The notes under the pieces: generated by a model | The model's database searches: none | Told to the model about the DNA's origin: nothing | What the model saw: only the letters and a program-made list of their open reading frames with translations | Program-made: the position numbers and the translations under genes | Source of the DNA: a virus | IMG/VR virus record: IMGVR_UViG_3300032323_001387 | Location: 32,001 to 96,000 of that record | Reading direction: 5' to 3' (one strand) | DNA length: 64,000 nt | Shown here: in pieces, positions 1-26,038 of the stretch | Numbering within the stretch: the stretch's first letter is position 1 | Layout of the letters: each line of letters opens with the position of its first letter

Positions 1-437
1 TGCTGTGCTAGAAAAGCCATGCTCATTCCTATATTGATATTTCTTATATCTATGTCTCCGGCTTTTGGCTCTTTTAAATAGGAACCATCTGCATCAAGAT
101 GGCTGGGATGATTTACTATAGGAAGATTCTTTGATGCTTCCAAATATATAATCACTGTTGGCGCTGTCAATATACCAAGTTGATATTCTTTGGGCATCAC
201 TTTGCCCAGTGATTCGCTGTATTTAGATACCATAAAAAATATGTTATCTTGCAGCCACTCTTTATATTCTTGTTTTTCAACAAGGATTGGTATAAAATTT
301 CTATTAGAATTTTGTGCAGGGGCATAATTAACTGCATCAATGAGCAGACGACGTTGTTCTGCTGTTAATTTTTCATCTTTGAAAACTTTCGACGTGCGTC
401 TTGTTTTTAAAAAATTATTATACTCTTGTGGTGTCAT
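1..437 (-). CDS. Nitroreductase-family (FMN) protein, runs off the window; missing from the ORF track
   Basis: Manual translation MTPQEYNNFLKTRRTSKVFKDEK...AVNYAPAQNSNRNF...NINIGMSMAFLAQ has the RRSxRxF-like, APxxxN and G-x-x-x-x-x-L-A patterns; ATGA overlap with the upstream stop at 434-437. Confidence 0.75.
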   Translation of the reverse strand, partial: MTPQEYNNFLKTRRTSKVFKDEKLTAEQRRLLIDAVNYAPAQNSNRNFIPILVEKQEYKEWLQDNIFFMVSKYSESLGKVMPKEYQLGILTAPTVIIYLEASKNLPIVNHPSHLDADGSYLKEPKAGDIDIRNINIGMSMAFLAQ

Positions 438-1606
438 TTAAATTGCTCCTTGAATGCATCATATTTAGTTCCACACGTCTTAGCGCATACTGCCAACTTT
501 CCTTCTGCACAGCTGGGTTTATTCCAACTGTTGGGAATTATCTCCTGCATAAATTTACCTTCGACAACATCTTTAAGACTATGTTGTTTTAAATTGAGAG
601 AGTCCAAGCCTGCTTCATTTATAGCATTCCAAATTTGGCCGCCTTGTTCTTTCCAATACCATACATACATCTGTCCGGCGGTCCAACAACATGGTTGTAA
701 GTATCCTTCCGCTGTTACATAAATGCTTTTCTCTTCGGCAACCTTACATTTAATAGGCACAGTATCCCAATACTTTTCCATGGGCTTTTTTAATTCAGGA
801 TCAGTGGTAAATTTTTGACTGCCAACTTTTTCTTTAAGAACTTCTACTGTGGTTATTAATTCATAAGGGTCCGACTTTTGTCCTTTTGTTATATTTTCTA
901 AATTCTTAATAGCTGCGTTATGATATTTGGGATCATTAGGCATTGCCAATAAAGTCGTTGCAGATCCTTTGCGATTGCCTGCTTGATGCTCTTGCTTAAC
1001 TTCGCCACGAGTATTGCTAAAGAAACGATTGCTCTTTTTGATATTGAACTTTTCAAAGCCCATTTTAGCGGCCAATGCTTCTGCTTCTTCTACTTGATGT
1101 TCGTTGTGTGCAAATACAATATAGTCCCAACGTGCTCTGCCGCCGGCATCTATAAATGCCTGTGCGTTTTCCATTATCTTTTTCCAAACAGTGCCTTGGC
1201 GATACAAGTGATTAGTATCCTCTAGTCCGTCTACGCCAAAAATAACATAACCTCTTTTACCTATTACGCCGGCAAGTTCTGCCCACCACTCTGGCTTTTT
1301 CATACTGCCATTTGTATGCATACTAAGATTTAATTTTTCGTTATGTTCTCTAAAGTAAGCAAATGCTTCGAGTGTATCAGATGCCACGGCAGGATCACCA
1401 TAGTTGCCACACATGTACAATCGGTTTAGTTGTTTAATGAAGTCTACGGGAAATATCTTTTCAATGTCAGTGATACTGAGTTCGGCACCATGCAACAATG
1501 GGCTGACTTCTCCACCATTTAAATTCCTAGCGCACATAGGACAAGAAGCATTACAAGCTTCTGTCATTTCTAAATGCACAGTGGTAATATCACTGTAGTT
1601 ATACAT
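434..1606 (-). CDS. Radical SAM protein with C-terminal SPASM/twitch-like Cys motifs
   Basis: CNASCPMC (CxxxCxxC), GNYGDP, TNG, later KCK...PCCW...CAKTCG. Confidence 0.9.
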   Translation of the reverse strand: MYNYSDITTVHLEMTEACNASCPMCARNLNGGEVSPLLHGAELSITDIEKIFPVDFIKQLNRLYMCGNYGDPAVASDTLEAFAYFREHNEKLNLSMHTNGSMKKPEWWAELAGVIGKRGYVIFGVDGLEDTNHLYRQGTVWKKIMENAQAFIDAGGRARWDYIVFAHNEHQVEEAEALAAKMGFEKFNIKKSNRFFSNTRGEVKQEHQAGNRKGSATTLLAMPNDPKYHNAAIKNLENITKGQKSDPYELITTVEVLKEKVGSQKFTTDPELKKPMEKYWDTVPIKCKVAEEKSIYVTAEGYLQPCCWTAGQMYVWYWKEQGGQIWNAINEAGLDSLNLKQHSLKDVVEGKFMQEIIPNSWNKPSCAEGKLAVCAKTCGTKYDAFKEQFK

Positions 1607-2463
1607 TATTTTACTCCATAAAGCGCATACCTTTTATATTTAGGAAATGTAATTTCTCCGCGATAGTATGTAGTTGTCACTGGGTACTTTCTTAAAAAGT
1701 CAGGCAGTGTCTCGGAGTAATTAATATGTTCTTCAATAGGGTCGCTGTTATTTTCAATGAACACAGTTGTTCCTGGTTTAAGTTTATTAAACCATTCTGT
1801 GTCCATATGTTCACTGCTTGTGTTAATAACTAGATCAGGAACAAGAATTTTATCATAAAATGTTAAATTGTTATCATCGTCAAAACATTCATTGATAGGC
1901 TTATTTTCTACGTATGCATCTGGGTTAATGATGGCTATTAATTCATTGACATTAGAATCGGGATCAATGCTAAACAATTTATTGTAATTAATGTCTTTAA
2001 GGTATAGGCTATGATGAGTTAGCCAGCCCCCTATTAGCAACACGTTACTAAAGTTTAGATTAAATTTAGATAAAATTTCTGCCATCCATATTTTACTAAG
2101 AACCTGGCTCTTGGAAAAAATAGTGGGCAATACATCTTCGTAGCCTTCATCGACGATTTGAAATAACTTGTGAATAAATTCATCTTCTGGCCAAATAGAA
2201 TGTAATGTACCCACAATATCTCGTGTGGTAATCTCATCCTTAGAACAAACGTTTGTATAAAAATTCAAACGATCTTCTCTAAATGCCACTGGATATTTGT
2301 CGTAATCGTCGGATATTAAATTTTTAAGAGACCATGGCTTTGATTGCTGGTCTGCATATTTTAAATTTATAATATTTCGTATAAACTGTTTTTTTCTCAC
2401 GTCTTGAATGAAATGAAAATATTTTTCTATTCCAAAGAGCCATGTAATTTTATCTGTTTCCAT
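1606..2463 (-). CDS. Class I SAM-dependent methyltransferase-like protein
   Basis: VLLIGGW glycine loop, SIDPD acidic residue after beta2, DLVINTSSEHM. Confidence 0.55.
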   Translation of the reverse strand: METDKITWLFGIEKYFHFIQDVRKKQFIRNIINLKYADQQSKPWSLKNLISDDYDKYPVAFREDRLNFYTNVCSKDEITTRDIVGTLHSIWPEDEFIHKLFQIVDEGYEDVLPTIFSKSQVLSKIWMAEILSKFNLNFSNVLLIGGWLTHHSLYLKDINYNKLFSIDPDSNVNELIAIINPDAYVENKPINECFDDDNNLTFYDKILVPDLVINTSSEHMDTEWFNKLKPGTTVFIENNSDPIEEHINYSETLPDFLRKYPVTTTYYRGEITFPKYKRYALYGVK

Positions 2464-3181
2464 CTAATCCTACCCATTTACAAAATTTGTTATACAACCA
2501 ATCAAAATCATTTACTATCGTAAAGTCTGCATCTTTTGATCTTGCATATTGTTCGCCTTGCCTTGCACCATGTACAGCAAAATAACCGTACTGCGATTCT
2601 AATCCTGCATTCATCCACATATTAAGCCTATCGAGACTTTCTTGATCGTTGTTGTTTTTATTAATGCCTGTGCTTAATTTAACTGCTTCCCGAAATGCTG
2701 TACGCCAAGTACTGTATGGCGTATAGTTAAATCTATGTTCGCTGGCCAATATGTTTAACTTGATATATCCGTCTGCTAGACTAGTGGTCATGTCAGGTTT
2801 ATCTAATCTTTCTGCACTAAAGCAATCTTTGCTAAACAACTTGATGCCACCATGTCCATATACCAATCCGTTAATAGGATTCTTTGCGCGAAACACTGCT
2901 ACATATTTTGGTTTGAGTTCTATTTGCTTGTCAAAAGTAAACCCATCTACAATCCAGCAATCTGCGTCAACTACATAAAATCTATCACTGTTGCACAAAC
3001 TGGCAATGTTTTTATGGCTTTCAAATATTGTACCTATGCTAGCAACTGCTTCGGCCCATGGTGCAACTTTGAGTAGTCTTTGCCAGTTCTCATTGAGGTT
3101 AGCTTCGTCCGTGTAAAGAAAATATACAGGTGTTTCCATATTAGTATTTAGGTAATGTGAAGCCATATAATGGCAAAGCAC
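2450..3181 (-). CDS. GT-A-like glycosyltransferase, phage paralog family A
   Basis: FYVVDAD (DxD), NGLVYGHGGIKL and WRTAFREAVKL shared with three other ORFs in the window; true start may be the later METPVYF. Confidence 0.6.
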   Translation of the reverse strand: MLCHYMASHYLNTNMETPVYFLYTDEANLNENWQRLLKVAPWAEAVASIGTIFESHKNIASLCNSDRFYVVDADCWIVDGFTFDKQIELKPKYVAVFRAKNPINGLVYGHGGIKLFSKDCFSAERLDKPDMTTSLADGYIKLNILASEHRFNYTPYSTWRTAFREAVKLSTGINKNNNDQESLDRLNMWMNAGLESQYGYFAVHGARQGEQYARSKDADFTIVNDFDWLYNKFCKWVGLDGNR

Positions 3182-4172
3182 TTTGATTTAGCAGTGCAGG
3201 CCAGCCTAAGCCTTTACCTGGACTAATATGAACATGTTTAAACCAAATGCTTTGTTCAGCATCTAGTTCTGCCAACGGTAAACCCAGGCCATCTCTTAGA
3301 TCTGTTAACAATTTACGATTGTGACTTTCTAAATATTCGCCGTGTTCGAGAATCTGCGATTGTTGTTCCCAGAACTTATGAAACCAGTCATAGTCTGCAA
3401 TAACAGTATGGTCAAAATTTTCTATGTATAACTTATATGCAGCCAGTCTTGCGCCGTATATAACCCATGCACCGTTTTCAATGTCACGGCCAACAGTCAT
3501 CCATATTAGCCAACGAGCATAGTTAGCCGGATACATTTTATGTTTAAAATCATGTAACGGGACTTTGTTGCCTTGGTCCAAGCCCATTTTAATGCCTTCT
3601 CTAAAGCCTGCTCTAAACGCTTGCTTGGCACTAGAGTTATTGTGAACGACACCATAGGTATTATTCATTTGTTTATAGTTTTCGGGATCCCAACAAAAGT
3701 CTACATTATTTGTGCCATCTTCTGGATCTGCTGCTTCATGACTTCGCATGTTCATGACATGTTTAGTATACCACAGCTTAACGCCGCCATTGCCATAGAC
3801 TAGGCCGTTGACGACATTGCGACTACTCCAGCTTAGTGTAGCTTCGGCAATATCCGGAGTAAGCTCTACGCTTTTTGTCCATATACTTTTATCTATTTTA
3901 CAGTCTGCATCTACTGTAAAGAATCTAGGAGCATTGGCGATTCGACCAGCTTCTTTGTGTGCTGCATCAAAGCCTTTAACACCATGTACTCTATATACTT
4001 TTTCTGCGTTGGGATGATGGTCTAATAGAAACTGATAGTTTTCATCTGCGTTTGGTTCGTCGTAGCTTAAAAAGACCACAGGAATATCTTTTAATTTTAA
4101 TATAGCGTTTTGCTGTGTTTCTTTCTTAACAGCAGTTTTAATTTTATTATCCAGTGAATTTAGTAAACTCAT
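3141..4172 (-). CDS. GT-A-like glycosyltransferase, family A
   Basis: VFLSYDEPNADEN, RVHGVKG, VDAD, NGLVYGNGGVKLW, RAGFREG. Confidence 0.6.
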   Translation of the reverse strand: MSLLNSLDNKIKTAVKKETQQNAILKLKDIPVVFLSYDEPNADENYQFLLDHHPNAEKVYRVHGVKGFDAAHKEAGRIANAPRFFTVDADCKIDKSIWTKSVELTPDIAEATLSWSSRNVVNGLVYGNGGVKLWYTKHVMNMRSHEAADPEDGTNNVDFCWDPENYKQMNNTYGVVHNNSSAKQAFRAGFREGIKMGLDQGNKVPLHDFKHKMYPANYARWLIWMTVGRDIENGAWVIYGARLAAYKLYIENFDHTVIADYDWFHKFWEQQSQILEHGEYLESHNRKLLTDLRDGLGLPLAELDAEQSIWFKHVHISPGKGLGWPALLNQSALPLYGFTLPKY

Positions 4173-4893
4173 TTTTCATCCATTCTAAATCATTAATAAC
4201 ACGCAAAGCTTCTGGATTCTCTGCATTTTGCAATCCATAATCTCGCCCTTGTTTTGCACCTGCTATTGCGTATTTGCCAAAAGGGCGTTTTGCACCTTTA
4301 GTAGTCCAAATTTTCAATCGCTGATTGCTTTCTTCTACAACACGATCTATAGCTTCGTCGTCATAGTTTAATTTATGACGCAATTCTTCATTAGTTAAGT
4401 TAGTGGCAAGTTTAACACATTCGCGAAAGGCACTGCGCCATGTACTGAACTCGTCGTAGTTAAATTTAGTGACGTTGCTTATTTGATCGAATACTTTGAT
4501 ACTTAATCCAAATCCAGTTGTGAAGTCAACAGTATCTGGATTCTTAGACAATAAAGAGTGCTTAGGTAGCAGTTTAACACCACCATGCCCATATGTCAAA
4601 TCGTTTATTGGATTAACGCTGTTCCATAAACAAAGGCATTCACTTTCAGGTATCCCCCACCAAGTATTGTACTTACTGGGAGTAAAGAAAAATTCAAAGT
4701 CTCTTACTATAATAGCATCGCTGTCTACTACATAAAAATTATTGGTAAGACTACGACGGGCACATTCTTGATGTGCCGCCGTAAAACCTTTTATACCATT
4801 TACACGCCTTGCATGTGGAACTTTCTCTAATAGAAGTTCGTAATTTTCATCAGCGTAGGGTTCATTATAACTTAAAAAGAAAACATCTAGCAT
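4147..4893 (-). CDS. GT-A-like glycosyltransferase, family A
   Basis: FFLSYNEPYADEN, VDSD, YGHGGVKL, WRSAFREC. Confidence 0.6.
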   Translation of the reverse strand: MLDVFFLSYNEPYADENYELLLEKVPHARRVNGIKGFTAAHQECARRSLTNNFYVVDSDAIIVRDFEFFFTPSKYNTWWGIPESECLCLWNSVNPINDLTYGHGGVKLLPKHSLLSKNPDTVDFTTGFGLSIKVFDQISNVTKFNYDEFSTWRSAFRECVKLATNLTNEELRHKLNYDDEAIDRVVEESNQRLKIWTTKGAKRPFGKYAIAGAKQGRDYGLQNAENPEALRVINDLEWMKNEFTKFTG

Positions 4894-4917: not shown

Positions 4918-6390
4918 TCATGATAATACAGGCACATTGTATTTCTTATAAAAGTCTTTGGCATGCTTTATATTATTGACCATTGGCTGGCCTTTGATGT
5001 TTAAGCTAGTGTTCAATAACATTGGACAGCCAGTTTCACTGTACCAATTTTCTAATAGCTTACGGAAGCCAGGGCTATCATTTTTACTCACTGTTTGCAC
5101 ACGACTTGTTCCGTCTTTGTGTATAATAGCAGGGAATTCATCGGGGCGAGTACAGCGAGCAACGAATTGCATATACGGACTAGTATCAATATTTTTAGGC
5201 ATATCGAAATAGTCATGCACATGTTCTTCTAAGATTGCTGGTGCAAAGGGTCTGAACTTTTGTCTACGTTTGATTGCGTTGACTGTGTCTTTGATTTCCG
5301 GTCCGCGGGGGTCAGCTAATAAACTGCGATGACCTAAAGCCCTGGGACCAAATTCTGCTCGGCCACTAGCCACGCCCACAATCTTGTTTGTTTTAAGCAT
5401 GTCAATAGTTTGGTCAACTGGATATTTCCTTCCCATGTTAGTGCCTAGGTAAGCGCCAGGCCATTTAACTTGTTCCCCAAAGTAAGCAGCCACTGCGCCT
5501 ACACTACTACCCGCATCTCCTGGATTTGGCATAATCCACACATTGTCCCAGTCTCCTGTGATCTCACTGTTAGCAACACAATTAAGAGCACAGCCTCCCA
5601 TTAGTATAAGATTGTTACTGGGTAGTTTGGAATTAGCCCACATACTCAACTGTTGTAACAGTTCTGTGTATATCTGTTGTGTGGCGGCAGCGATATCATA
5701 TGTATCTTGTAAGCTGACTAAATCCAAGCGCCAGTCTGGACAACCCCTATGTAGATTACGTTTGAATTTGATTTCGGGTGCACGAATAGTTTTAAAGAAA
5801 TCATTGTAGATGTCTGCTTTGTATTTGTCGGGGTCACCATAAGCAGCCATGCCCATCAAAATGTATTCTTCTTCGTTGGGTTTCAATCCACAACGTTGTG
5901 TCATAGCAGAGAACCATATACCAATACTATTGGGATAACTTTGACTGTAAACTTTCTTTAAGTCATTGCCTTCACCCTGCCATATTGTTAGACATTCAAA
6001 TTCACCGATGCTATCAATAACGATAACAGTGGCATCTTTATAGCCACTGGTATAATATCCTGCAGCTGCATGACTTTCATGATGCTTACCAAATACAACA
6101 GGCTTGTCTAAATTGTATTTAGATAGGTACTGTTTGATGTTGTTTTCTTTACCACGATAGCCTTGGCCAGCATATAGCTGACGCACGGTTTTAAGCCACG
6201 GCTTTTCATACCAAACAATTAAATCTGGTTCTCCGTACTTTTTTGCGTCTGCTATAATGCCTTCACATAAATCGCCATCGTTTTTAATTCCCGAATAGCG
6301 TTCACTGTGTCCAGCAAATTGTAGTTCTTTATCGTGCCAAACACTTATGGCAGCATCATGGCTGTTGGCACTAATTCCCCAAATGTTCAT
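4918..6390 (-). CDS. O-carbamoyltransferase (NodU/CmcH/TobZ family)
   Basis: HDAA, ERYS, HHESHA, GGCALNCVAN, PGDAG, EFGPRALGHRSLL, KRRQKFRPFAP, LNTSLN. Confidence 0.95.
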   Translation of the reverse strand: MNIWGISANSHDAAISVWHDKELQFAGHSERYSGIKNDGDLCEGIIADAKKYGEPDLIVWYEKPWLKTVRQLYAGQGYRGKENNIKQYLSKYNLDKPVVFGKHHESHAAAGYYTSGYKDATVIVIDSIGEFECLTIWQGEGNDLKKVYSQSYPNSIGIWFSAMTQRCGLKPNEEEYILMGMAAYGDPDKYKADIYNDFFKTIRAPEIKFKRNLHRGCPDWRLDLVSLQDTYDIAAATQQIYTELLQQLSMWANSKLPSNNLILMGGCALNCVANSEITGDWDNVWIMPNPGDAGSSVGAVAAYFGEQVKWPGAYLGTNMGRKYPVDQTIDMLKTNKIVGVASGRAEFGPRALGHRSLLADPRGPEIKDTVNAIKRRQKFRPFAPAILEEHVHDYFDMPKNIDTSPYMQFVARCTRPDEFPAIIHKDGTSRVQTVSKNDSPGFRKLLENWYSETGCPMLLNTSLNIKGQPMVNNIKHAKDFYKKYNVPVLS

Positions 6391-6524
6391 TTGTAAATAA
6401 AAGGATCTCGTTTGCGTAGTTCTTCTAAACGCTTTTTAAGTTGTTCTTCGTAGTCTAACTCTTCCTGTGTTTTTTGTTTTTCTTCTTCTACAGGTTGTTG
6501 TGGTTGTTGATCGTTGTTTTCCAT
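6387..6524 (-). CDS. 45-aa peptide ending KKRLEELRKRDPFIYK, coupled to the carbamoyltransferase; below the track size cut-off
   Basis: ATG at 6524, TGA at 6387-6389 overlapping the carbamoyltransferase ATG (ATGA); TATAAATA 5 nt upstream. Confidence 0.8.
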   Translation of the reverse strand: MENNDQQPQQPVEEEKQKTQEELDYEEQLKKRLEELRKRDPFIYK

Positions 6525-6529
6525 AATGA

Positions 6530-6537
6530 TATTTATA
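6530..6537 (-). promoter_or_regulatory. T4-type late promoter TATAAATA
   Basis: Exact gp55 consensus in a short intergenic gap; a gp55-like gene is present in the window. Confidence 0.7.
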
Positions 6538-6539: not shown

Positions 6540-7082
6540 TTAGTTAATGTAATATAGCTCAGGATACTCCACTAATACATGAATACCTTTTTCTTCTGTA
6601 GCTGTTTTATAAGCATTAGCAATATCAGCAGGCGTTTTTAAATCATAAAATTTGGTGTGCGGGCATAGGCTTTTGAATTCTTCAAAATAGCTACCTTTGT
6701 GTTGATGGCCGGGGTCTAAAGGTTTGTCGCTGCCTTTACCCAAACGTATTAAAACATGTGCTTGTTTGCCTGTCATTGCTTGGAATTTATCTAAGTGATT
6801 GACCAATTGATTAGTTGCACTGATAACAAAATCCCATCTTGGATAAAAACTAACAACAGTTTTACCAGCCATAGCCATTCCCAGACTCATACCCATTTGT
6901 GTTTCTTCCATGACGGGAAGTTCAATCATTTTATCCTTAGGCACATTACCCAATGTAGTGCTCATTGGATTACCCGAGTAAACAATTTGTTGTCCAATGA
7001 AAAGTATATCGTCCTTAGCTGCCAATACCGTCATTGCATCAGTTAGTGCATCTTTGTATGGGCTCATTTGTGGTGCTGTCAT
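6540..7082 (-). CDS. ThDP-dependent enzyme beta subunit (E1-beta/transketolase pyrimidine-binding domain only)
   Basis: IELPVMEETQMGMSLGMAMAG, ATNQLVN, GHQH; lacks the usual C-terminal domain. Confidence 0.8.
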   Translation of the reverse strand: MTAPQMSPYKDALTDAMTVLAAKDDILFIGQQIVYSGNPMSTTLGNVPKDKMIELPVMEETQMGMSLGMAMAGKTVVSFYPRWDFVISATNQLVNHLDKFQAMTGKQAHVLIRLGKGSDKPLDPGHQHKGSYFEEFKSLCPHTKFYDLKTPADIANAYKTATEEKGIHVLVEYPELYYIN

Positions 7083-7083
7083 T

Positions 7084-7938
7084 TTAAATTTCTCTTTCTA
7101 AATGTTGTATTATGTTATCTGCTATTACGCGATGACATAATTTTGAAGGATGCATATCTTGCGGAGTTACATCAAACTCGTCGGTATCTCTGTATATAGT
7201 AAGTTCGGGATTTACTATTTTTTGATCTATTTTAGTTTCCATCATATGTTCCATACTAGGATACTGAATACCTTTATAGTCAAATTTAATCATTCTATTT
7301 CTTAGCCAATCATCTTGTTCTATGTAATCTACAAGATCTGCTGGCCAAGTCATTACATAAACTTTAATGCCTTTGTCTGTAAATGTTTTTAAAAACTCTT
7401 TGACCTCTTGCAGCTCTTTTCTTATGGCTTGCTCAATATATTGATCCACAGTTAAATTGTTTTCAATCAACCATTTTGCAATTTCATGATTAGCTAGGAT
7501 ATCGGAGTGAGTAGAGGGATATGGTTTGCCTAGTCGAGTTGGACTATGTGCTCTATGCCATTGAGTGAATTGATAAAAAACATGACTTATATCTTCGTAG
7601 TTAAACGTAGGCGGAGTCACGGGATGATTGCCTTTGTTTTTTTCGGGATTGTCTTTGCTCATAAAGCATCTCTGCCACCAATCATGTATGCTGTAACTGG
7701 CTCCACCGTTCCAAGGTTGGCAAAGTTCATATGTATTAAAATGATTTGCTACAAGCCTTGGAAATCTCAGAGACTTCATATACTCGATATGTGTATCTTT
7801 AACATAATCTGCTTGATAGTGATTAGCTGGTGGTTCTACAAGTGTGGGCATGTTTGAATAATAATACAAACCTTGCCCCCACGTAAAACTACATCCAGCA
7901 AAGATCATTCCCCTAGTAACGGGACTTTGACTTTTCAT
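7084..7938 (-). CDS. SGNH/GDSL-like hydrolase or acyltransferase
   Basis: N-terminal AGCSFTWG, C-terminal DMHP. Confidence 0.6.
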   Translation of the reverse strand: MKSQSPVTRGMIFAGCSFTWGQGLYYYSNMPTLVEPPANHYQADYVKDTHIEYMKSLRFPRLVANHFNTYELCQPWNGGASYSIHDWWQRCFMSKDNPEKNKGNHPVTPPTFNYEDISHVFYQFTQWHRAHSPTRLGKPYPSTHSDILANHEIAKWLIENNLTVDQYIEQAIRKELQEVKEFLKTFTDKGIKVYVMTWPADLVDYIEQDDWLRNRMIKFDYKGIQYPSMEHMMETKIDQKIVNPELTIYRDTDEFDVTPQDMHPSKLCHRVIADNIIQHLEREI

Positions 7939-8354
7939 TTATTTTTATTAGGCCAACTAATTTCCCAGTCTTTAAAGTCTGCTGCCAAGCAGTCTACTTT
8001 ATAGTCTTTACGTCCGCCAACACTTTCTTGAATTACGTTCTTAGCAGTATTACGAATACCATTTAAGCCGTGTGTAAGCTCTAGGTTGTTGCCATCTTTA
8101 ATACCACGACGATAATTACTTTCATTGTGCCAAATATGTAAATTCATTTGACTGACCACAACAATAGCACGGATAACATCTGCTGTAACTACTACATCTT
8201 TTTCTTCTAGTATTAGTTGAATATCATGTACAATGGCAGCAATTTCTTCACTGTATTCTTGTTTATGTTCGGGAATAAAAACTTCCTTGAGTTGAACAAT
8301 GCTCAAACGATCAACCAAATCACCTAGTGTATGCAAGTATTTTCTCTCAGTCAT
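7935..8354 (-). CDS. Hypothetical helical protein within the sugar module
   Basis: Coupled ORF; TLGDLVDRLSIVQLK resembles small proteins seen in glycan loci; function unknown. Confidence 0.6.
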   Translation of the reverse strand: MTERKYLHTLGDLVDRLSIVQLKEVFIPEHKQEYSEEIAAIVHDIQLILEEKDVVVTADVIRAIVVVSQMNLHIWHNESNYRRGIKDGNNLELTHGLNGIRNTAKNVIQESVGGRKDYKVDCLAADFKDWEISWPNKNK

Positions 8355-10275: not shown

Positions 10276-10276
10276 T

Positions 10277-18335: not shown

Positions 18336-18997
18336 ATCAATCGTATATCTCTAAGAAACAATTTTATTTTCTTTGCCAACTCTGCGTGTGCTTCCTCGTT
18401 GGGATGATATCCATCACTGCACTTCAAGCCTTTATTTAAACAATAAACTTCGTAGATAGATGTGTCGTAGCCTAGTACAAATTTCTTTGTTGGCAATAAC
18501 TTAACCATATTTTTATATTGGTTTTCAAAAGGTTCTTTATCTATATAACCTTCTAAAAAAGAATTTATAAAAGCATACTGTATGTTTCTAGCCTCCAGAA
18601 AAGATGCTACAAATATCTGTTGCATGTAATATTCCATCAGGCCTTCGTAGTCACTATAGAAATGCTCGTACCAAATATCTTTCATTTTTTTCAGATATTC
18701 TTCATATGGATCATGCCCCAGCAGTATGTTTTCCCATTGTTTCTTTTCTGGAAAATATACTGCTGTGCGTGATATGCCAGTCCAAGAAAATACCACCAAT
18801 GCCCTGGCTGGATGCTCTATGTCTGCAAAGTCATTTAACAAATTAATTATACTAAGCTTGTTAGAACCTCCTGGCACGCCTCTATTAACAACAGGGGTCT
18901 TCATTAAGTCTCCCAATTTAGCAGGCCATGCATCTTTGGACTTTATACCGTCTCCAGCAGTAAAGCTATCTCCGTATGCATAAATTTTATCAATCAT
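18332..18997 (-). CDS. SGNH/GDSL-like protein
   Basis: YGDSFTAG, NRGVPGGSN, DGYHPNEEAH; start taken as MIDKIY. Confidence 0.75.
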   Translation of the reverse strand: MIDKIYAYGDSFTAGDGIKSKDAWPAKLGDLMKTPVVNRGVPGGSNKLSIINLLNDFADIEHPARALVVFSWTGISRTAVYFPEKKQWENILLGHDPYEEYLKKMKDIWYEHFYSDYEGLMEYYMQQIFVASFLEARNIQYAFINSFLEGYIDKEPFENQYKNMVKLLPTKKFVLGYDTSIYEVYCLNKGLKCSDGYHPNEEAHAELAKKIKLFLRDIRLI

Positions 18998-20435
18998 TTT
19001 CCTTATATACCCCTGTTTCGGCAAAAGTTATTCCTGATTGTTCTACTAGCTTAACTATCTCATAATTTTTATTAAGTTCTATGCTTTCGTACCAATTGGC
19101 TATTTCCGGAAATGTATTAACTATGTTTTTGTTTCTTCTAGCATCATACTGTGAATAGAAACTCTTAAAGTCGTGGAACAATGCAGACTTATCGTGAGTA
19201 GTAGATACGTGACCTGTTTGGACAACTTCTAAATAATCAATTAATCGTTTGATGCTGGCTTTTTCACCTGCTTCTAAATACCGACTATCTTTGTGCAGAT
19301 CATACCATGCTGATAGTTTCGAATGTACTTCATCTTTGAGATCGTTGGGCAACGTAACTGGGCTCATGTATGCAGGCCAGCGCAATATGTTTAGATCCAA
19401 ATAAGGTCTATTGTTTCCATATTTTTGTTTAAGTTCTAACATATCGTCCATGAATTCTGTTATACTAAACAAACATAGATTAGATATAGTCATCATGATG
19501 GTGACATTTCTAAACTTGGCATTTTCAATGAAGTTGACTAAGTTACTGCGCCATACTTTATAGTCCATACCATCACGCAGATACTCGGCATGTAAGCCAA
19601 AGCTTTCGTTGCTGGTAAACAAATCAAACTCTTTAACTGGCAGCGTTTTAGTTACTTCAATTAGTCTTTCCAAAGCTCTGGGGCTTGAACCTAGATTACT
19701 GTTAACCGCAAAGCGCATGTCCAAGTATTCATTCTTTTCGTTTATAATATCAATAAAGCGCCAAAAGTTTTGACTAACTGTACATTCGCCGCCAGTAATA
19801 CGTAGCTCTTGCAAGCTCTTAGATAATTCAGGCCACCATTCAAAGAACGCTTCCACATAGGGATTGTCATCCAAATGGCGCCCATATGCTGTGCTCCACG
19901 CTCCATCAGTCTGGTATGCACCCCCGCCACCGCCTTCAGCAATGAAGTTTTGATATGGGCCATTCTTGGCAATGTCATAGCTCCATGTTGTACTGTAACC
20001 TGCGTTACAATAGCTACAGGCAAAGTTACACTGTCTATCAAAACTGATCTCTAATGTTTTAAGATTAACATCGTCAGCCCAGTTCATGTCCTTGATTTTT
20101 TTAATATCTTCTGCGCTATATATAATACTTTTATTAATACGGTCGCTGATATTATTTCTACCAATGCCTTCCACTTTCCAACAATAGCCGCACTCTGCTG
20201 GCTTTTTGCCTTCCAGCATCATTTTACGCATACGCTTTTTGTGATCAGTGTTGTGCAAGCCGCTGGGGTTATAACTAATTTCGCTGACATCAATTGGATG
20301 CGGCAAAGGTAAGTGACAGCTACCAGTATAGCCAGATCCTAAAAAGATACTGGCGTTGTACCATTTAGCCGCACAGAAGCTGGGACTAATTGAATTTAGA
20401 TTTTCATCTCTCCATTTAATTAGATCATCAGACAT
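18990..20435 (-). CDS. Radical SAM protein with N-terminal twitch-like domain
   Basis: FCAAKW..SCH..ECGYCW, then CNFACSYC and ITGGE. Confidence 0.9.
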   Translation of the reverse strand: MSDDLIKWRDENLNSISPSFCAAKWYNASIFLGSGYTGSCHLPLPHPIDVSEISYNPSGLHNTDHKKRMRKMMLEGKKPAECGYCWKVEGIGRNNISDRINKSIIYSAEDIKKIKDMNWADDVNLKTLEISFDRQCNFACSYCNAGYSTTWSYDIAKNGPYQNFIAEGGGGGAYQTDGAWSTAYGRHLDDNPYVEAFFEWWPELSKSLQELRITGGECTVSQNFWRFIDIINEKNEYLDMRFAVNSNLGSSPRALERLIEVTKTLPVKEFDLFTSNESFGLHAEYLRDGMDYKVWRSNLVNFIENAKFRNVTIMMTISNLCLFSITEFMDDMLELKQKYGNNRPYLDLNILRWPAYMSPVTLPNDLKDEVHSKLSAWYDLHKDSRYLEAGEKASIKRLIDYLEVVQTGHVSTTHDKSALFHDFKSFYSQYDARRNKNIVNTFPEIANWYESIELNKNYEIVKLVEQSGITFAETGVYKEND

Positions 20436-22005
20436 CTTTGTTAATTACCTTTTGTTTCATTGCTTTACAAATATTATAAAACTCTGTGTACTCTGGATAT
20501 ACTTCTAAAAAGTTTGTACCATAACGACGATCCAAGTCATTGACAAAGTCATAGAACTTGGCACGATTTAGTGTAAAGTCTTTGTTGCCTTCTACATCAT
20601 TTTTAGAATTATAAGCAATATTCAAACACACACGTTTGAATTTTTCAAGCTCAAACTCTTCAAAGGCATGGTGCATTTTCCAAGTCTTAGTCTGTGTTGT
20701 ATGATCCGCCATATAGTTAATACTTGGCAGCAAATATTCTTGAATAAGATCTTTACTGGCCCACTGTGCATCCAAGAACGTTGGATTACGCAAGTAAGGC
20801 AAATCAATACCATTGATACTAGGATGACTTGTAGTCTTTTTACTTCTGTCTGTATATGACTCTCCAGGGAAAGCAAAGTTAAAGCCTGTGTCCTTTTCCC
20901 ACATGTTAGCGACAACGGGGTTAGGATTATATTTCTTTCTAAGTTCGAGCTGCCATTCAAACAATTTCTGTATGCTGGAAATACTTAGAATGTTAAACGT
21001 AACCATTGTGGTAATTCTAATATTACCCATTTGCATGATTTGTTCGTAACGCTTGCAGAACTTTTCAAAGTCCAGTCCTGGACGCAGATATTCCGCACGT
21101 TCACCCCAACCATCTACGCTGGTAAAGATAGTTAGCTTCTTGATATAGTTGCCACGACTTAGAATTTCTGCACGTTCGATAAACTTGTCCCACAGCTTGT
21201 CAGGTACACCCATATTAGTATTAATACTAAATTCAAGATCGGGGTTTGGATTGTCGATGAACCAGTCCATACTTCTATATGTTTCTTTGCTTAACAGCGG
21301 CTCGCCGCCTGTGATACGGAATACATGTAAGTGTTTGTAAGCTTCAGGCCACCATTTCCAAAATGCATCAATGTAAGGATTGAATTCACTGTTCTTATAA
21401 CTTAGACTGTCTAAGTCAGGTTGCCAGCCCTGTGCCCATACAGTGTGATCTGTATTTTCCAACAACTTAACTGGGCCGTTTTGTTTTAGTTCTTCTACCC
21501 ACTTACTACTATACTCGGGACCGCAGTACACGCATTTGAAGTTACATACGTTACTAAAGTCTACTTCTAAATAACTTGGATAAAAGTCTTTGTTAGGGTC
21601 GCTGGCTTGAATCTCGTCATGCTTTTCCAATGCCCATGGCTCTAAACTCTTATAGAATCTATCACTGGGACTTTTGTTATCTTCAACACGCCAGCAGTAA
21701 TCACATTCCTTTGGACGCTGTCCTTCCAGCATTTCTTTTCTAGCTTTTTTAAGCACACTAGTATTAAACAATGCGCCCGAATTCTTTTGAATTTCTTCTA
21801 AGGGGATTTTATGTGGCACTGGGTGGTGACAACTATGTGTCATTCCTGTGCCTAAGTGCATAGTAACTTGTGTAAACTTAGCAAGGCAAAAACCAGGCCC
21901 AGTGCTATCTAACAGTTCTTTTGTCTTATCAATATTTGGCCCGGTGCGAGCTACTTTATTGTCATAACCGATATCCCAATTGATATCACTGAGTTTCTTT
22001 TTCAT
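20428..22005 (-). CDS. Radical SAM protein with N-terminal twitch-like domain (paralog)
   Basis: FCLAKF..SCHH..ECDYCW, then CNFKCVYC and ITGGEP. Confidence 0.9.
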   Translation of the reverse strand: MKKKLSDINWDIGYDNKVARTGPNIDKTKELLDSTGPGFCLAKFTQVTMHLGTGMTHSCHHPVPHKIPLEEIQKNSGALFNTSVLKKARKEMLEGQRPKECDYCWRVEDNKSPSDRFYKSLEPWALEKHDEIQASDPNKDFYPSYLEVDFSNVCNFKCVYCGPEYSSKWVEELKQNGPVKLLENTDHTVWAQGWQPDLDSLSYKNSEFNPYIDAFWKWWPEAYKHLHVFRITGGEPLLSKETYRSMDWFIDNPNPDLEFSINTNMGVPDKLWDKFIERAEILSRGNYIKKLTIFTSVDGWGERAEYLRPGLDFEKFCKRYEQIMQMGNIRITTMVTFNILSISSIQKLFEWQLELRKKYNPNPVVANMWEKDTGFNFAFPGESYTDRSKKTTSHPSINGIDLPYLRNPTFLDAQWASKDLIQEYLLPSINYMADHTTQTKTWKMHHAFEEFELEKFKRVCLNIAYNSKNDVEGNKDFTLNRAKFYDFVNDLDRRYGTNFLEVYPEYTEFYNICKAMKQKVINKDV

Positions 22006-22014: not shown

Positions 22015-22986
22015 TTAATTTATGCTATTATCTACTTGACTCTCTTTGACTAGAGCGCCTAACCTAGGTGGGTTAATAAAACTTTCTTTGAACATGCGAC
22101 TACCATTGACGTCCAATTCTGCAATCTCAAGATTTAAATTTGTTCTTAGTTCTTGACCAAATTTGTAAATTTCTTTTTTCAACTTGTCGGCGTCATAGTT
22201 CCAGCCTGTGGCATTACATCTGCCAGTGTCGCCCTCGAATTGAGGTTGAACACTTTCTTTCCAGAAATTATCATGCCAATCAAAATCCCTGCAGGCTGTA
22301 AAATCAAAACTATCTTTAGCAAGGTTAGTCAAGTATGCACCAAGTCTGGTGCCAAACATAGCCCATAGTCCATTTTCAACATCCGCTCCAACACTGCTCC
22401 ATACTAGGAAACGTTTGTAATTGCGTTCATGCACTTGTTCTTTTAAACGCCTAGGATCAACAGTTACGCCACCATTGAGCAATAGCTTGACACCTTCTCT
22501 AAAGCCTGCTCTATATGCTTGATATGCGCTGGCATTGTTGTGTACATCGCAGTAGATATTATTCATTTGGAAATAATAAATGTCCCAACAGAAGTCAACT
22601 TTGGCTTTTGGATCTTCTGCATTTTCATGTGTACGCATTTGTTCTACTACATGCTTAGGCCACATCTTAATACCACCATTGCCATAGACTAATCCGTTCA
22701 TGACGTTTTTTCCTGCCCAGCTAACAATGTCGTGCTTGCCTATTTTACTCATATCCAATTCTAGACTAAAGAATTCTTCGCGAACAATATTATCTGCGTC
22801 CACAGTAATAAAACGATCAGTCTCTGCTACTCTTGCTGCTTCTTTATGTGCATTATCGAAACCTTTAACGCCGTGTACTCGTTTTGCCCATGGTGCTTTT
22901 TCTAAGAGGTTTGCATAATTCTTATCTGCATTAGGTTCATCGTAGCTTAAAAATACGATATCAAAATTTGTAATAGGTACTGACAT
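22015..22986 (-). CDS. GT-A-like glycosyltransferase, family A
   Basis: VFLSYDEPNADKN, RVHGVKG, VDAD, NGLVYGNGGIKMW, RAGFREG. Confidence 0.6.
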   Translation of the reverse strand: MSVPITNFDIVFLSYDEPNADKNYANLLEKAPWAKRVHGVKGFDNAHKEAARVAETDRFITVDADNIVREEFFSLELDMSKIGKHDIVSWAGKNVMNGLVYGNGGIKMWPKHVVEQMRTHENAEDPKAKVDFCWDIYYFQMNNIYCDVHNNASAYQAYRAGFREGVKLLLNGGVTVDPRRLKEQVHERNYKRFLVWSSVGADVENGLWAMFGTRLGAYLTNLAKDSFDFTACRDFDWHDNFWKESVQPQFEGDTGRCNATGWNYDADKLKKEIYKFGQELRTNLNLEIAELDVNGSRMFKESFINPPRLGALVKESQVDNSIN

Positions 22987-23926
22987 TTGCGTCCTCGATA
23001 TGTAAATGGTGATAATTTGAAATTATCTTAACTGGTGTCTTAGATTTTAATTTTAATTCGACTAGTTTAAAATCATCCAATTCTTGAGTATTTAAAGTCA
23101 AAGTATCTAAAATTTGACCAGGATCGTTGCTACTAAAAACATAAAACGTTATTTCTTTATCCAAATTAAAATTTTGAGTTTCACTCATGATACTTTGGAT
23201 TTGCAGTATGTTGCCTATTTGTTTATATACTAGTGTAGGTTTTAAACTCGCAGAAGCAATAGGAACGAAATAAGGTTCCTTATCTATACTGATTTTAAAA
23301 TTATGATTATAATGCAAAAAACCCAGACTGTCAAATTTTATATGTTCATTGGGCAACCATTTGCAGGAAAATATTTGCTCGTGATTGGAAAATAATTCTT
23401 TGATGTTTAGCGTGAGTTTGTCATACAACTTGCTAGGCTCTTCTTTGTCTATACAAAAAATTTCCATCTGATCGGGCATGTTTGCTAATTGAAATTCTGT
23501 TGTACGTTCTTTGGTGTATTCTTGTTTAAAATTATCGTAGATAAAATTAGCATTGATTTTTTTACTAACTAGATCACAATGCAAGTGGATGAAATTATTG
23601 CTATCGTTTTCGCCATATACGTAATCAAATTCCCAACGTCTGTGTTCGCGATGCTTGTATAAGATTCTTGACCCCGACTCATGATCATATCTTATTCTTA
23701 ATTTATGCAAAGGAGATTTGTTATAAAATATTTCCTTAATAAGGTCATTTTCTTCAACTTCCAATGTAGTGCGTCGACTGTCGGTGCTAGGCACATTATA
23801 AGGCGATACGCTTAATACTTGATATGTTAATTTGTCATACTCAACATAAAACTTACTATCCTTAACTTTTTTCTTTTTAAGAATAGTCTTTTGTATGTCA
23901 AATTCATCATCATTGATATTACGCAT
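22961..23926 (-). CDS. Hypothetical protein
   Basis: 321-aa ORF packed in the operon; no motif recognised. Confidence 0.7.
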   Translation of the reverse strand: MRNINDDEFDIQKTILKKKKVKDSKFYVEYDKLTYQVLSVSPYNVPSTDSRRTTLEVEENDLIKEIFYNKSPLHKLRIRYDHESGSRILYKHREHRRWEFDYVYGENDSNNFIHLHCDLVSKKINANFIYDNFKQEYTKERTTEFQLANMPDQMEIFCIDKEEPSKLYDKLTLNIKELFSNHEQIFSCKWLPNEHIKFDSLGFLHYNHNFKISIDKEPYFVPIASASLKPTLVYKQIGNILQIQSIMSETQNFNLDKEITFYVFSSNDPGQILDTLTLNTQELDDFKLVELKLKSKTPVKIISNYHHLHIEDANVSTYYKF

Positions 23927-24766
23927 TTAAATAAATTTTTTTCTTAGGTTAGTCAATGTTTCGGCGGTTAGCCATGCACTGGTATTATATTTAACTAAAC
24001 CCAATTGAACATAATTTTCAATTTTTATATCGCCCTGATCGTTTACCCAGTATGACAAAAATTCTGTCCATGGCTTTTTCGACCATTGGTCATTGACATA
24101 GCTGTTTTCCCTTAAACTTAAATCAATCAAATTAACAAAGTCAAACTTCGTTATTTTAAGTCCTAATATCTTATGCATCATTGACATTAACCATTCGGGC
24201 CATAGATATTTGGGGAATGGGGGCATTGCATTATTTTCTTTATCTGCAAAAAAATCAATGAATTCATTTTGATTATATTGCGACGCGATCAATACTGCCA
24301 TACCAAATACGTAATCGCAGCCTTTATCTCTGTTAAAATATATTGCATCAATAATTGATCCCTCTCCAAAACTTTTTTGTTCAGTGGATCCTTCTGTGTA
24401 CAATGAGTAATCAAGTAACTCGCCATTAAAACTAGATCTAGTTTTTGGCATAACAATGCTGTTCATACCCCTTAAATTTTCCCATACATCAATATTGAAG
24501 TTAGTTAAAATTTGATCAGGATTAAACGCAATGGTTTTTGTATAAGGACTTGCTAATAATGAGTGAAAATATGTTGCCGACAGGATGTTACTCGGCTCTA
24601 TATAAATTTCTCGATCAATGTATAGCAAATATTTTTTTAAGTTGTCTTCATGTGCAATGATGCTGATAGGCCGTTCTTTGTCAAACAGCCTAATACTCTT
24701 GATCAACAGTTCAACCTGTGTCAAGTTTTTCATTTTACAATCAACTATTAAATAACCTTCAGTCAT
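23927..24766 (-). CDS. Degenerate nucleotide-diphospho-sugar transferase-like protein
   Basis: GYLIV...LIKSIR...SPYTKTIAFNPD parallels its neighbour (SPYNKTLMIDVD) but lacks DxD. Confidence 0.5.
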   Translation of the reverse strand: MTEGYLIVDCKMKNLTQVELLIKSIRLFDKERPISIIAHEDNLKKYLLYIDREIYIEPSNILSATYFHSLLASPYTKTIAFNPDQILTNFNIDVWENLRGMNSIVMPKTRSSFNGELLDYSLYTEGSTEQKSFGEGSIIDAIYFNRDKGCDYVFGMAVLIASQYNQNEFIDFFADKENNAMPPFPKYLWPEWLMSMMHKILGLKITKFDFVNLIDLSLRENSYVNDQWSKKPWTEFLSYWVNDQGDIKIENYVQLGLVKYNTSAWLTAETLTNLRKKFI

Positions 24767-25655
24767 ATATCATTTGTTTTATTTTGTCATAATGTCTAAG
24801 AATAGCCATCTTATTCATTACGTGAACATTTTCGTTTTTAACTCTACTGGCAATATTTTTCCATAATTCTTTTGGGTCTGGGCAAATTAATAACATGTCA
24901 TTGATTTCTTTGAAATCTGCTATGTCGTCAATCTGTTCACTGAACCGCATAACTTTTCCGGGCAGTTCATGTATTAAGTTGCCTTGTCTATGGCCATTTA
25001 AAATATGCACTGCTATGCTTACTGCATAGTCTGTTCTAAACAACACTCCAGGAAACTTATATAACCATTTGTAGTAGTTGTAATTTTCCTTGACATGTTC
25101 CCATACTCCAAAGAACAGTTTGGCTAATTCGCTGTCGCTTCTCCAGTATACAGCAGTTGACCACCACATGTCAATGCCATCTGGGTGTAATTTTTGTTCC
25201 CAAATACGTGGTTTATAATTACGAACACTTAATGCATGTTTGTACATAGCGACTTCACTGTCGGTATCAAATATAGCATCTAATGTGTCGTTGCCAATCA
25301 AGTAGTCAACGTCTATCATTAACGTTTTATTATAAGGACTCTTGTTAAAAATACTATGCTTATTTTTATTGTTGAATTGCGTAGTAAACTCGTTCCATGG
25401 ACTGTCACGATGTGTTCTTGTATTACGTTCGTGCGTTACATTGTCAATGATAATATGATCAAATGTCTGAGCAGCGAGACTTGGCGTTAGTTCTAATTGT
25501 AATGCGTCAAACGTGGGTTGATCTGTTAACAGAGTTACATGATTATTCGTCATGTGTAGTTTTACACATCTAGCTGCCACTAATGCTAGTTTTTCATAAT
25601 CAATTTTACCGTTGTTGTAGGCAATAAGCAATATACCAGAATCAAATTTACTCAT
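24759..25655 (-). CDS. Nucleotide-diphospho-sugar transferase-like (GT-A) protein
   Basis: GILLIAYNN..DY, SPYNKTLMIDVDY, WSTAVYW, FRTDYAVSIA, HVMNK. Confidence 0.6.
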   Translation of the reverse strand: MSKFDSGILLIAYNNGKIDYEKLALVAARCVKLHMTNNHVTLLTDQPTFDALQLELTPSLAAQTFDHIIIDNVTHERNTRTHRDSPWNEFTTQFNNKNKHSIFNKSPYNKTLMIDVDYLIGNDTLDAIFDTDSEVAMYKHALSVRNYKPRIWEQKLHPDGIDMWWSTAVYWRSDSELAKLFFGVWEHVKENYNYYKWLYKFPGVLFRTDYAVSIAVHILNGHRQGNLIHELPGKVMRFSEQIDDIADFKEINDMLLICPDPKELWKNIASRVKNENVHVMNKMAILRHYDKIKQMIYD

Positions 25656-26001
25656 TTAAACCAACCAACCCTTTTGTGTCACGTTGTTTTTTAAGTTTTT
25701 CATTTTCCACATAGTATTCATTTAATGCTTCTGTGTATGCACTAAAAAGTTTTTCGTGGAATTCTTTGATGTTAGTAACCAGTACTGGATTTTCGTTGTC
25801 GTCTAAGAATATATAACGCTCGACATCTAAGTCAATTAGTTGTTTGACAAAATTAAGTAATTCTAGTTTTGCTGTAAAAAGTGAACTCATGTAACCAATA
25901 GTTAACATAGTGTTCATACGTTGTTTGAGATTTAGCTTTTGGTTGTTCAGTGTTAACCTATAGTTACTGAACTCCAAAGCCGCTTTGAGTTTTTCATCCA
26001 T
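25648..26001 (-). CDS. Hypothetical phage protein heading the modification cluster
   Basis: GGAG at 26008-26011 supports the MDEKL start; late promoter upstream. Confidence 0.7.
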   Translation of the reverse strand: MDEKLKAALEFSNYRLTLNNQKLNLKQRMNTMLTIGYMSSLFTAKLELLNFVKQLIDLDVERYIFLDDNENPVLVTNIKEFHEKLFSAYTEALNEYYVENEKLKKQRDTKGLVGLNE

Positions 26002-26030
26002 CCAGAGCTCCATTATGTGCTATTTTAATT

Positions 26031-26038
26031 TATTTATA
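26031..26038 (-). promoter_or_regulatory. T4-type late promoter TATAAATA
   Basis: Exact consensus in the gap preceding the modification cluster. Confidence 0.7.

Follow-up and report, generated by a model that had tools for sequence, protein, structure and literature searches.

A glycosyltransferase-like and radical SAM enzyme island behind the tail-fibre genes of an uncultured jumbo phage: a candidate virion glycan pathway

This study concerns a 64,000-nucleotide window, bases 32001-96000 of a 172,208-bp IMG/VR viral contig (IMGVR_UViG_3300032323_001387; CheckV completeness 48%), and within it an island of enzyme genes at window positions 1-26038. The contig comes from a jumbo phage, and the enzyme genes lie immediately downstream, in the direction of transcription, of its distal tail-fibre genes. 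PHROGs matches at 26-53 kb of the window are to baseplate, tail-lysozyme and fibre genes, and the baseplate wedge protein shares 35-37% identity with the Rak2 / GAP32 / Atu_ph07 group of jumbo myoviruses. We regard the source as an uncultured jumbo myovirus of the Rak2 / Atu_ph07 / RsoM2USA kind that carries the island at a fixed site behind the distal tail-fibre genes. A megablast search of 25 kb against cultured phages gave no match.

The island portion of the window contains 28 large open reading frames (ORFs) and one 45-aa ORF, all on the minus strand (as are all genes of the window given below by coordinates), and most overlap by a few bases. A preliminary description of the window had recognised a co-oriented, mostly overlapping enzyme cluster of at least 26 kb behind tail-fibre genes. 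This is what we find, except that the length requires correction: the run of co-oriented genes extends 21 kb beyond the start of the window, as far as contig position 10790, for a total of about 47 kb. The 21-kb extension contains 12 further radical S-adenosylmethionine (SAM) ORFs, of which one is double, three further SGNH-like genes and an Asp/Asn beta-hydroxylase-like gene. The same description had noted that flippase, Wzy, exporter and membrane proteins are missing, and this extends to the larger block. No ORF of the ~47-kb island contains a transmembrane or membrane-helix-type hydrophobic segment, and the 47-kb block has no Pfam domain of a phosphoglycosyl (priming) transferase, flippase, polymerase, ligase or ABC exporter. 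By Pfam domains and a hydrophobic-segment scan of the island ORFs, the locus is thus not a Wzx/Wzy- or ABC-dependent surface polysaccharide locus; its products are soluble proteins.

The fibre genes TF413, TF398, TF320 and p190 (26065-30080), recognised by PHROG tail-fibre matches as distal tail-fibre/baseplate genes, provide both the candidate acceptors discussed below and the anchor for comparing loci. The C-terminal domain of TF320 is also found in a virion structural protein of PA5oct. These genes had been described as rich in serine, threonine and tyrosine, and their composition agrees, with 12% S and 12% T (proteome means, 6.6% and 6.8%) and one Gly-Tyr tract. This long (Gly-Tyr)n tract belongs to TF398 (window 27684-27812, minus strand) and sits beside the glycogenin-like glycosyltransferase (GT) genes; glycogenin itself glucosylates tyrosine. 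The first island gene, P121 (25648-26013), encodes a small helical protein and is kept in 66 of 80 related loci, always between the fibre genes and the GT-like gene O298. M321 (22961-23926), which matches no family and contains a perfect sigma70 consensus, is found in closer relatives only (19 of the 80 loci).

Nine GT-like genes were counted by fold or profile, in agreement with the earlier estimate of about nine: four of a family we call X (GT-A-like), three of family Y (GT-B-like) and the two GT8-like genes O298 and N279, all outside curated GT families. Families X and Y emerged from an all-against-all comparison of the ORFs without family assignments, for which NCBIfam and PHROGs returned nothing in the window; Pfam GT2 and GT8 models likewise found no match in the contig. 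Whether these proteins have GT folds at all bears directly on a glycan pathway, and structural models predict a GT-A fold for family X and a GT-B fold for family Y.

The core copy of family X (22015-22986) is modelled by AlphaFold2, with a predicted local distance difference test (pLDDT) score of 89.2, as a GT-A-fold, GT-like protein with a helical C-terminal domain. Residues 2-150 of this model align with B4GALNT1 and GT2-type enzymes (VIA Z 10.1, root-mean-square deviation 3.0, 139-140 residues aligned), and PBCV-1 A64R and Mimivirus R699 are among the structural matches (Z 8.2-8.5). The two aspartates of the DxD motif, D63 and D65, are invariant in 24 sequences. Three paralogues complete the family in the window: one at 2450-3181, with the invariant DxD in the paralogue alignment and a GT-A fold assigned from the model of the 22015-22986 copy; one at 3141-4172, 44% identical to that copy and likewise aligned as GT-A-like; and one at 4147-4893, placed as GT-A-like by paralogue comparison and alignment. 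More than 7,700 database homologues exist, none of them annotated, and family X has no Pfam match and no PDB sequence match even with the 24-sequence profile.

Family Y, with more than 1,100 homologues, is represented by a modelled copy at 12671-14080 (AlphaFold2 pLDDT 91.3; GT-B fold by VIA and Foldseek), by a GT-B-fold, GT-like paralogue at 11248-12693 that aligns with it at 36% identity, and by a GT-B-like paralogue at 15246-16676 recognised by paralogue comparison and alignment. GT10 fucosyltransferases and T4 beta-glucosyltransferase tie as the closest structures (VIA Z 10.7, 263-305 residues aligned), and nearly all of the 48 Foldseek matches at E<=0.001 are GT-B enzymes; Pfam, NCBIfam and PDB sequence searches gave no match. 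O298 (24759-25655) is a glycogenin-like, GT8-like GT-A protein with an invariant DxD. A profile built from 13 homologous sequences matches glycogenin-1 (E 9e-5, 116 columns, covering the DxD region), and its Atlas leads are GT8 and Mannosyl_trans3. Its paralogue N279 (23927-24766) aligns to the O298 family in hhalign at 99.5% (E 3e-22, 239 columns).

Radical SAM enzymes are the dominant feature of the block. The preliminary description listed three, and all three are genuine, but the block actually holds 16 radical SAM domains. The contig total is 17, comprising 11 NF033640 (N_Twi_rSAM) domains in 10 ORFs, with scores of 242-427 bits against a curated 170-bit cut-off, and six of other classes, one of which is encoded on the plus strand just outside the block. 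In the window, two N-terminal-twitch enzymes of NF033640 are encoded at 18990-20435 (283 bits; 51% identity to ORF202 of the cultured Ralstonia phage RsoM2USA; CxxxCxxC and the four twitch cysteines intact) and 20428-22005 (305 bits; 34% identity to RsoM2USA ORF349). The third, at 434-1606 (Pfam PF04055, E 1.5e-9), ends in a C-terminal SPASM domain (E 1.2e-3) and belongs to a class, rSAM_d, that has homologues in many phage loci and in 47 of 75 bacterial loci. Nine aligned NF033640 paralogues share the invariant twitch cysteines C40, C58, C121 and C124, the CxxxCxxC cysteines C177, C181 and C184, and a GGE motif. In the twitch region the similarity is to the twitch domain of BtrN (E 2.5e-4), and for the radical SAM core the nearest solved structures are SkfB (E 2e-10), MoaA, BlsE and viperin; these likenesses do not discriminate between a free-glycoside product and action of the radical SAM enzymes on protein.

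Beyond the far end of the island, outside the window, a convergent plus-strand block (contig 7063-10278) has its own copy of the promoter-like motif TATAAATA at contig 7063. It includes a split twitch-like ORF (8309-8653) and a radical SAM ORF (8650-9318), which are 47% identical to a minus-strand pair at contig 29404-30362. A homologue of its gene c7336 accompanies N-terminal-twitch arrays in loci L068-L079, and the system may therefore extend into the plus-strand block.

The sugar-nucleotide and tailoring enzymes named in the preliminary description, namely an RmlC, three short-chain dehydrogenases/reductases (SDRs), thiamine diphosphate (ThDP) enzyme alpha and beta parts, a carbamoyltransferase and a nitroreductase, are all recovered with Pfam and NCBIfam. 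An RmlC-like nucleoside diphosphate (NDP)-4-keto-6-deoxyhexose 3,5-epimerase (14704-15249) matches Pfam dTDP_sugar_isom (E 7e-32) and scores 108 bits against the 156-bit cut-off of TIGR01221. SDR1 (8351-9286; Pfam Epimerase E 8e-35) is an NAD-dependent sugar epimerase/dehydratase whose nearest NCBIfam models, GalE and RmlB, are both matched below cut-off. SDR2 (9283-10317; Epimerase E 6e-46) and SDR3 (10277-11263; Epimerase E 3e-35) are GDP-fucose-synthase-like epimerases/reductases, with sub-cut-off NCBIfam Fcl scores of 138 and 123 bits, respectively. The ThDP enzyme is split into minimal halves 7 kb apart, one with only the PP (alpha-like) domain (14065-14694, 209 aa; Pfam E1_dh E 5e-15, partial match to pyruvate dehydrogenase (PDH) E1 alpha) and one with only the Pyr (beta-like) domain (6540-7082, 180 aa; Pfam Transket_pyr E 3e-9, partial match to PDH E1 beta). 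Because no member reaches an equivalog cut-off, we regard this sugar-nucleotide pathway as divergent. Furthermore, no RmlA-type nucleotidyltransferase or NTP_transferase domain occurs in the contig, and the pathway must therefore start from host NDP-hexoses. With an RmlC-like epimerase, SDRs below the RmlB and RmlD cut-offs and no RmlA, the contig does not hold the RmlABCD set for dTDP-L-rhamnose.

The carbamoyltransferase (4918-6390) is of the NodU/CmcH type and has both domains (Pfam Carbam_trans_C E 4e-54, Carbam_trans_N E 3e-36). It is 47% identical to RsoM2USA ORF199 and matches the NodU equivalog only partially, at 139 bits against a cut-off of 1000. The nitroreductase-family protein at 1-437 crosses the window start; its full ORF of 250 aa matches Pfam PF00881 at E 5.8e-7. 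Four SGNH-like proteins had been proposed, and three of them are supported: a GDSL/SGNH hydrolase or acyl-transfer enzyme (18332-19024; Pfam Lipase_GDSL E 4e-6, DUF6071 E 2e-8), K295 (17448-18335; motifs GCSFS and DGFHPS, a weak DUF6071 match and hhalign 97.7% to the GDSL family) and J260 (16669-17451; GCSYT and DGHPS, hhalign 95.9%). The fourth, E284 (7084-7938), is weaker, with GCSFT near the N terminus, DMHPS near the C terminus and hhalign 67% to the same family. The methyltransferase of the preliminary description is best treated as a lead: A285 (1606-2463) appears class I methyltransferase-like from its LLIGGW and FSIDPD motifs and from an Atlas search in which the nearest named clusters carry Methyltransf_31. 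F139 (7935-8354) is a helical protein with no Pfam, NCBIfam or PHROG match and a weak, partial match to DUF4254 (E 0.021, 22 positions).

Directly before the carbamoyltransferase lies the 45-aa ORF (6387-6524), which ends in RKRDPFIYK and whose stop codon overlaps the carbamoyltransferase ATG. The C-terminal RKRDPFIYK motif is kept in a small ORF in RsoM2USA (L001:19038-19148) and in L061, and in L013-L017 the same PFIYK motif forms the C-terminal tail of a 370-aa aldolase-like protein encoded just upstream of the carbamoyltransferase. The motif may be a docking tail for the carbamoyltransferase. We considered and rejected the ORF as the precursor of a ribosomally synthesised and post-translationally modified peptide (RiPP), given that PFIYK also ends the 370-aa aldolase-like enzyme of the relatives; a hidden Markov model of DUF5989 (SxtK) did not match the 45-aa ORF.

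The motif TATAAATA occurs as a late-promoter-like box on the minus strand at 26031-26038, 18 nt upstream of P121, and at 6530-6537, ending 5 nt before the ATG of the 45-aa ORF, exactly where boxes had been reported at 26031 and 6530. It is under-represented in the window (3 copies, 10.7 expected). Ten of its 12 copies in the 172-kb contig lie between genes and are followed after 4-29 nt by a start codon on the same strand; a head-decoration-like gene and the tail sheath gene (PHROG E 1e-235) are two of the genes so preceded. Among related loci, 25 of 65, in two clades, keep the motif 17-29 nt upstream of P121. We read TATAAATA as a putative T4-type late-promoter motif, which would suggest late expression of the island in the clade of the source phage only. 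The perfect sigma70 consensus in M321 is conserved at the corresponding position in L006-L008, the three closest relatives, and a further site, with 11 of 12 consensus positions, lies at 25145-25174 and recurs in L006 and L007, with a near-equivalent in L011. These internal sites may be promoters for the host RNA polymerase; the one perfect consensus aside, scans for sigma70-like promoters and terminators gave overall counts at chance level.

The position of the island is conserved over great distances. We gathered 80 IMG/VR loci with family X as the query and a second series with the structural gene p190. In the 80 loci the order is constant down to 33% identity: fibre paralogues, P121, O298, in some cases N279 and M321, then X, followed by variable arrays of radical SAM, X and A285 genes. 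O298 is present in 73 of these loci, and in the p190-based series it follows the fibre genes in 46 of the 62 loci with enough downstream DNA. The part with the NDP-sugar, family Y and SGNH genes is restricted to the two to four closest relatives. The island is thus an accessory element: its size differs among relatives, between 0 and ~47 kb, and it keeps to a single site. Among cultured phages, only RsoM2USA has homologues of X, O298 and the N-terminal-twitch radical SAM enzymes. Its island, ORF346-354, also directly follows fibre genes, and a second mini-cluster, ORF199-202, combines a carbamoyltransferase with another N-terminal-twitch radical SAM gene. The published description of RsoM2USA reports ORF361 and ORF356 as virion proteins and does not discuss the island genes. 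Synteny across related jumbo phages, which the preliminary description had suggested as a check, therefore bears out the association: about 80 contigs and RsoM2USA keep the core behind fibre genes.

The radical SAM part of the island also has a bacterial counterpart. In bacterial contigs sampled at one genome per species, homologues of the N-terminal-twitch enzymes come almost entirely from Bdellovibrionota, often several per genome, a distribution that the search pattern may bias. Within the bacterial loci (L086-L160), up to seven or eight such genes stand in tandem (L150), and one locus belongs to a metagenome-assembled genome of Parcubacteria (L137). In Bdellovibrionota the module recurs as [A285][X][N-twitch][rSAM_d][rSAM_a], and its commonest other neighbours are true Pfam GT2 genes. 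This occurrence shows that the module is not virion-specific, and the GT2 neighbours support a glycan context for the radical SAM family; the layer of P121, O298 and N279 is phage-specific. Our searches found no specific paper on Bdellovibrio radical SAM/GT clusters, on radical SAM/glycosyl clusters of jumbo phages, or on the island itself.

Taken together, these observations make it very probable that the island enzymes build and edit a glycan in the cytoplasm. In the sequence of steps we propose, host NDP-hexoses would be converted into unusual 6-deoxy sugars, possibly C-branched, by the RmlC-like epimerase, the three SDRs and the minimal split ThDP enzyme. The nine GT-like proteins would then assemble these into a cytoplasmic glycan on a soluble acceptor. 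The glycan could next be O-acylated or de-acylated by the SGNH-like proteins, carbamoylated by the NodU-type enzyme and methylated by A285, with further editing by as many as 16 radical SAM domains, chiefly NF033640. More speculatively, the nitroreductase-family flavoprotein may supply electrons to the radical SAM enzymes. The fuller statement, in which this building and editing takes place on a surface protein of the virion, probably one of the neighbouring fibre proteins, we put forward tentatively, as one that may well hold and may slightly more readily fail. Deep synteny and the promoter motif make a virion fibre the best single guess for the acceptor; in that case the island would serve to decorate virions and would diversify fast, much as an O-antigen locus does. 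The preliminary description had likewise placed the glycan on virion proteins. Its cytoplasmic, soluble assembly is supported by the modelled GT folds and the lack of membrane parts, and fibre synteny across about 80 contigs makes the virion target plausible.

Several observations weigh against this reading. All GT assignments come from fold or from weak profile matches and none from curated families, and nucleotidyltransferases of the same fold match family X at Z 8.5-8.9, a reminder that fold alone does not prove transferase activity. The predicted structure of family Y is as close to T4 DNA glucosyltransferases as to fucosyltransferases, and no enzyme of the island has a recognisable protein-targeting domain. 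Nor is the link to the fibres obligatory. The island is missing in some relatives with the same fibre genes: in L172, L194, L211 and L213, the fibre genes abut the convergent block that flanks the island's far end, which identifies these as phages without the island, and TF320-like fibres also occur in cultured phages that lack it. The island is therefore not needed for fibre assembly (we also considered an essential chaperone or assembly role of the core for the fibres, which the island-free relatives make unlikely), and it could lie where it does simply because that part of the genome is plastic. As for timing, the preliminary description had called the cluster late-expressed. The T4-type motif also precedes the tail sheath gene, in keeping with that claim, but other clades instead carry a TTGACA-N17-TATAAT sigma70-type promoter upstream of P121, and the perfect consensus of the source phage (TTGACA, 17 nt, TATAAT; 23334-23306, minus strand) lies inside the coding sequence of M321, at 320 nt upstream of X. 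Finally, the module shared with bacteria, where one operon (L160) consists of a class II aminoacyl-tRNA synthetase (aaRS)-like gene, two GT2 genes, two N-terminal-twitch radical SAM genes and a major facilitator superfamily (MFS) transporter, also fits the production of a free glycoside.

That observation introduces the best surviving alternative, which we consider unlikely, though still live: the island could make a free, natural-product-like small-molecule glycoside or oligosaccharide, kept in the infected cell or freed at lysis, with its adjacency to fibre genes incidental. Carbamoyltransferases of the NodU/TobZ type, like twitch radical SAM and SGNH enzymes, are characteristic of pathways to glycoside natural products, and the island has all three kinds. 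The match of the twitch region to BtrN and that of the core to BlsE would suit such a product, as would the dispensability of the island and the presence of X, A285 and the radical SAM module beside GT2 genes in Bdellovibrionota chromosomes, in one operon together with the aaRS-like and MFS transporter genes. However, an incidental location is hard to reconcile with the constant position of the core behind fibre paralogues across very divergent phages and with the phage-specific P121, O298 and N279 layer, and neither an exporter nor an aminotransferase nor a scaffold-forming enzyme is encoded in the island.

A second live alternative, to which we give still less weight, keeps the fibre as a target but makes the radical SAM block act on protein, through RiPP-like cross-linking, epimerisation or maturation of fibre proteins or of a peptide; the GTs would glycosylate that target as well. 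Most radical SAM enzymes with SPASM or twitch domains mature peptides, and SkfB is the nearest solved core. The Asp/Asn beta-hydroxylase-like and nitroreductase-family genes of the block, the long Gly-Tyr tract of the neighbouring fibre protein and the conserved small ORF would all be at home in such a system. Yet we found no precursor-peptide family, the PFIYK motif of the small ORF is not a RiPP core peptide because it also forms the tail of a 370-aa enzyme, and the bacterial N-terminal-twitch family keeps company with GT2 genes.

Remodelling of the host envelope is disfavoured and, in our view, improbable. Here the island would alter lipopolysaccharide or capsule through the lipid-linked machinery of the host, leading to superinfection exclusion or to less trapping of progeny on debris. 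The GT and radical SAM cassettes that pelagimyophages carry in the hypervariable region at their tail-fibre genes have been interpreted in this way (PMC7029224), and 6-deoxyhexose enzymes are typical of O-antigen pathways. The 47 kb of the island, however, encode no membrane protein of any kind and no phosphoglycosyl transferase, flippase, polymerase or ligase, and a late-type promoter in a lytic jumbo phage would leave little time for export.

Also disfavoured, and the least probable by a clear step, is hypermodification of the phage DNA by glycosylation of hydroxymethyl-pyrimidines. We are aware of no DNA modification that involves a 6-deoxyhexose pathway, and the island, preceded by a late-type motif, belongs to the structural region of the genome rather than to the replication genes. 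The match of family Y to T4 beta- and alpha-glucosyltransferases (Z 10-10.7) and the precedent for carbamoyltransferases and GTs in DNA hypermodification, as Pyle et al. 2024 is cited in PMC12619734, speak for it. The preliminary description had found no deoxynucleoside monophosphate (dNMP) hydroxymethylase in the window; we find no ThyA-family match in the whole 172-kb contig (48% complete) or in a module-carrying relative that is 98% complete. RsoM2USA does have a second, divergent ThyA-family gene (record 7739-8398, minus strand; 85 bits), a possible dNMP hydroxymethylase, beside its normal thymidylate synthase (242 bits). A search for TET/JBP gave no match and is uninformative, as the control genomes were also blank.

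Returning to a glycan assembled on a virion fibre, this reading would place phages beside giant eukaryotic viruses as able to make complex glycans using enzymes of their own and no membranes. Situated at host-recognition genes and varying from 0 to ~47 kb between relatives, the island may affect adsorption, host range or environmental resistance in abundant aquatic phages. Three large families without a Pfam or NCBIfam match (X, Y and O298) are new leads for enzymology, and the island gives genomic context to NF033640, a radical SAM family without a known reaction. A bolder version of the idea, which we consider rather doubtful though less so than any of the alternatives above, is that the N-terminal-twitch enzymes use radical chemistry of a so-far-unknown kind to edit a glycan attached to protein (perhaps by C-methylation, epimerisation, deoxygenation or C-C/C-O cross-linking) and, with the new GT-A and GT-B families, create a rapidly diversifying tail-fibre 'virion O-antigen' of abundant aquatic jumbo phages, the same chemistry being used by predatory Bdellovibrionota. 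The minimal version of the island in the cultured phage RsoM2USA makes the reading testable.

How the island relates to known systems differs from one part of it to the next. Its RmlC-like epimerase, Fcl- and RmlB/GalE-like SDRs and ThDP PP and Pyr domains resemble NDP-6-deoxyhexose pathways (RmlBCD, GDP-fucose synthase) and the ThDP enzymes of branched-chain sugars; unlike those pathways, its enzymes all fall below equivalog level and are not accompanied by RmlA, and the ThDP halves are reduced and far apart. To our knowledge, the island is the largest phage sugar-tailoring gene set. With NF033640 the correspondence is closer, since the island domains exceed the cut-off score and keep the four N-terminal twitch cysteines and CxxxCxxC; the family is named without a known reaction, and we found no paper on a characterised member. 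We know of no radical SAM arrays in the glycosylation systems of PBCV-1, Mimivirus and mycobacteriophages. These systems, that is, PBCV-1 A64R and its partners, the Mimivirus fibril clusters and the glycosylation of mycobacteriophage capsids and tails (Freeman et al. 2023), are nevertheless similar to the island in combining soluble, virus-encoded GT-A and GT-B enzymes with deoxy-sugar tailoring genes of their own. In contrast, the comparison with them found no sequence-level relationship, and for the island a virion glycan is a prediction.

The closest parallel in genome organisation is the host-recognition/hypervariable cluster (HRC) of pelagimyophages and cyanomyophages, in which GTs and radical SAM cassettes are gained and lost between close relatives (Zaragoza-Solas et al. 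2020, PMC7029224). Both are large, variable regions joined to tail-fibre genes, both contain GTs and radical SAM enzymes, and the function proposed for each is putative. The reading published for the HRC, modification of the host O-chain, does not fit the complete lack of membrane components in the island. Moreover, whereas HRC phages are T4-like, the island belongs to a Rak2/RsoM2USA-like jumbo phage, in which it combines a defined core of P121, O298, X and N-terminal-twitch radical SAM genes with a far larger load of enzymes, including 17 radical SAM domains in a single contig.

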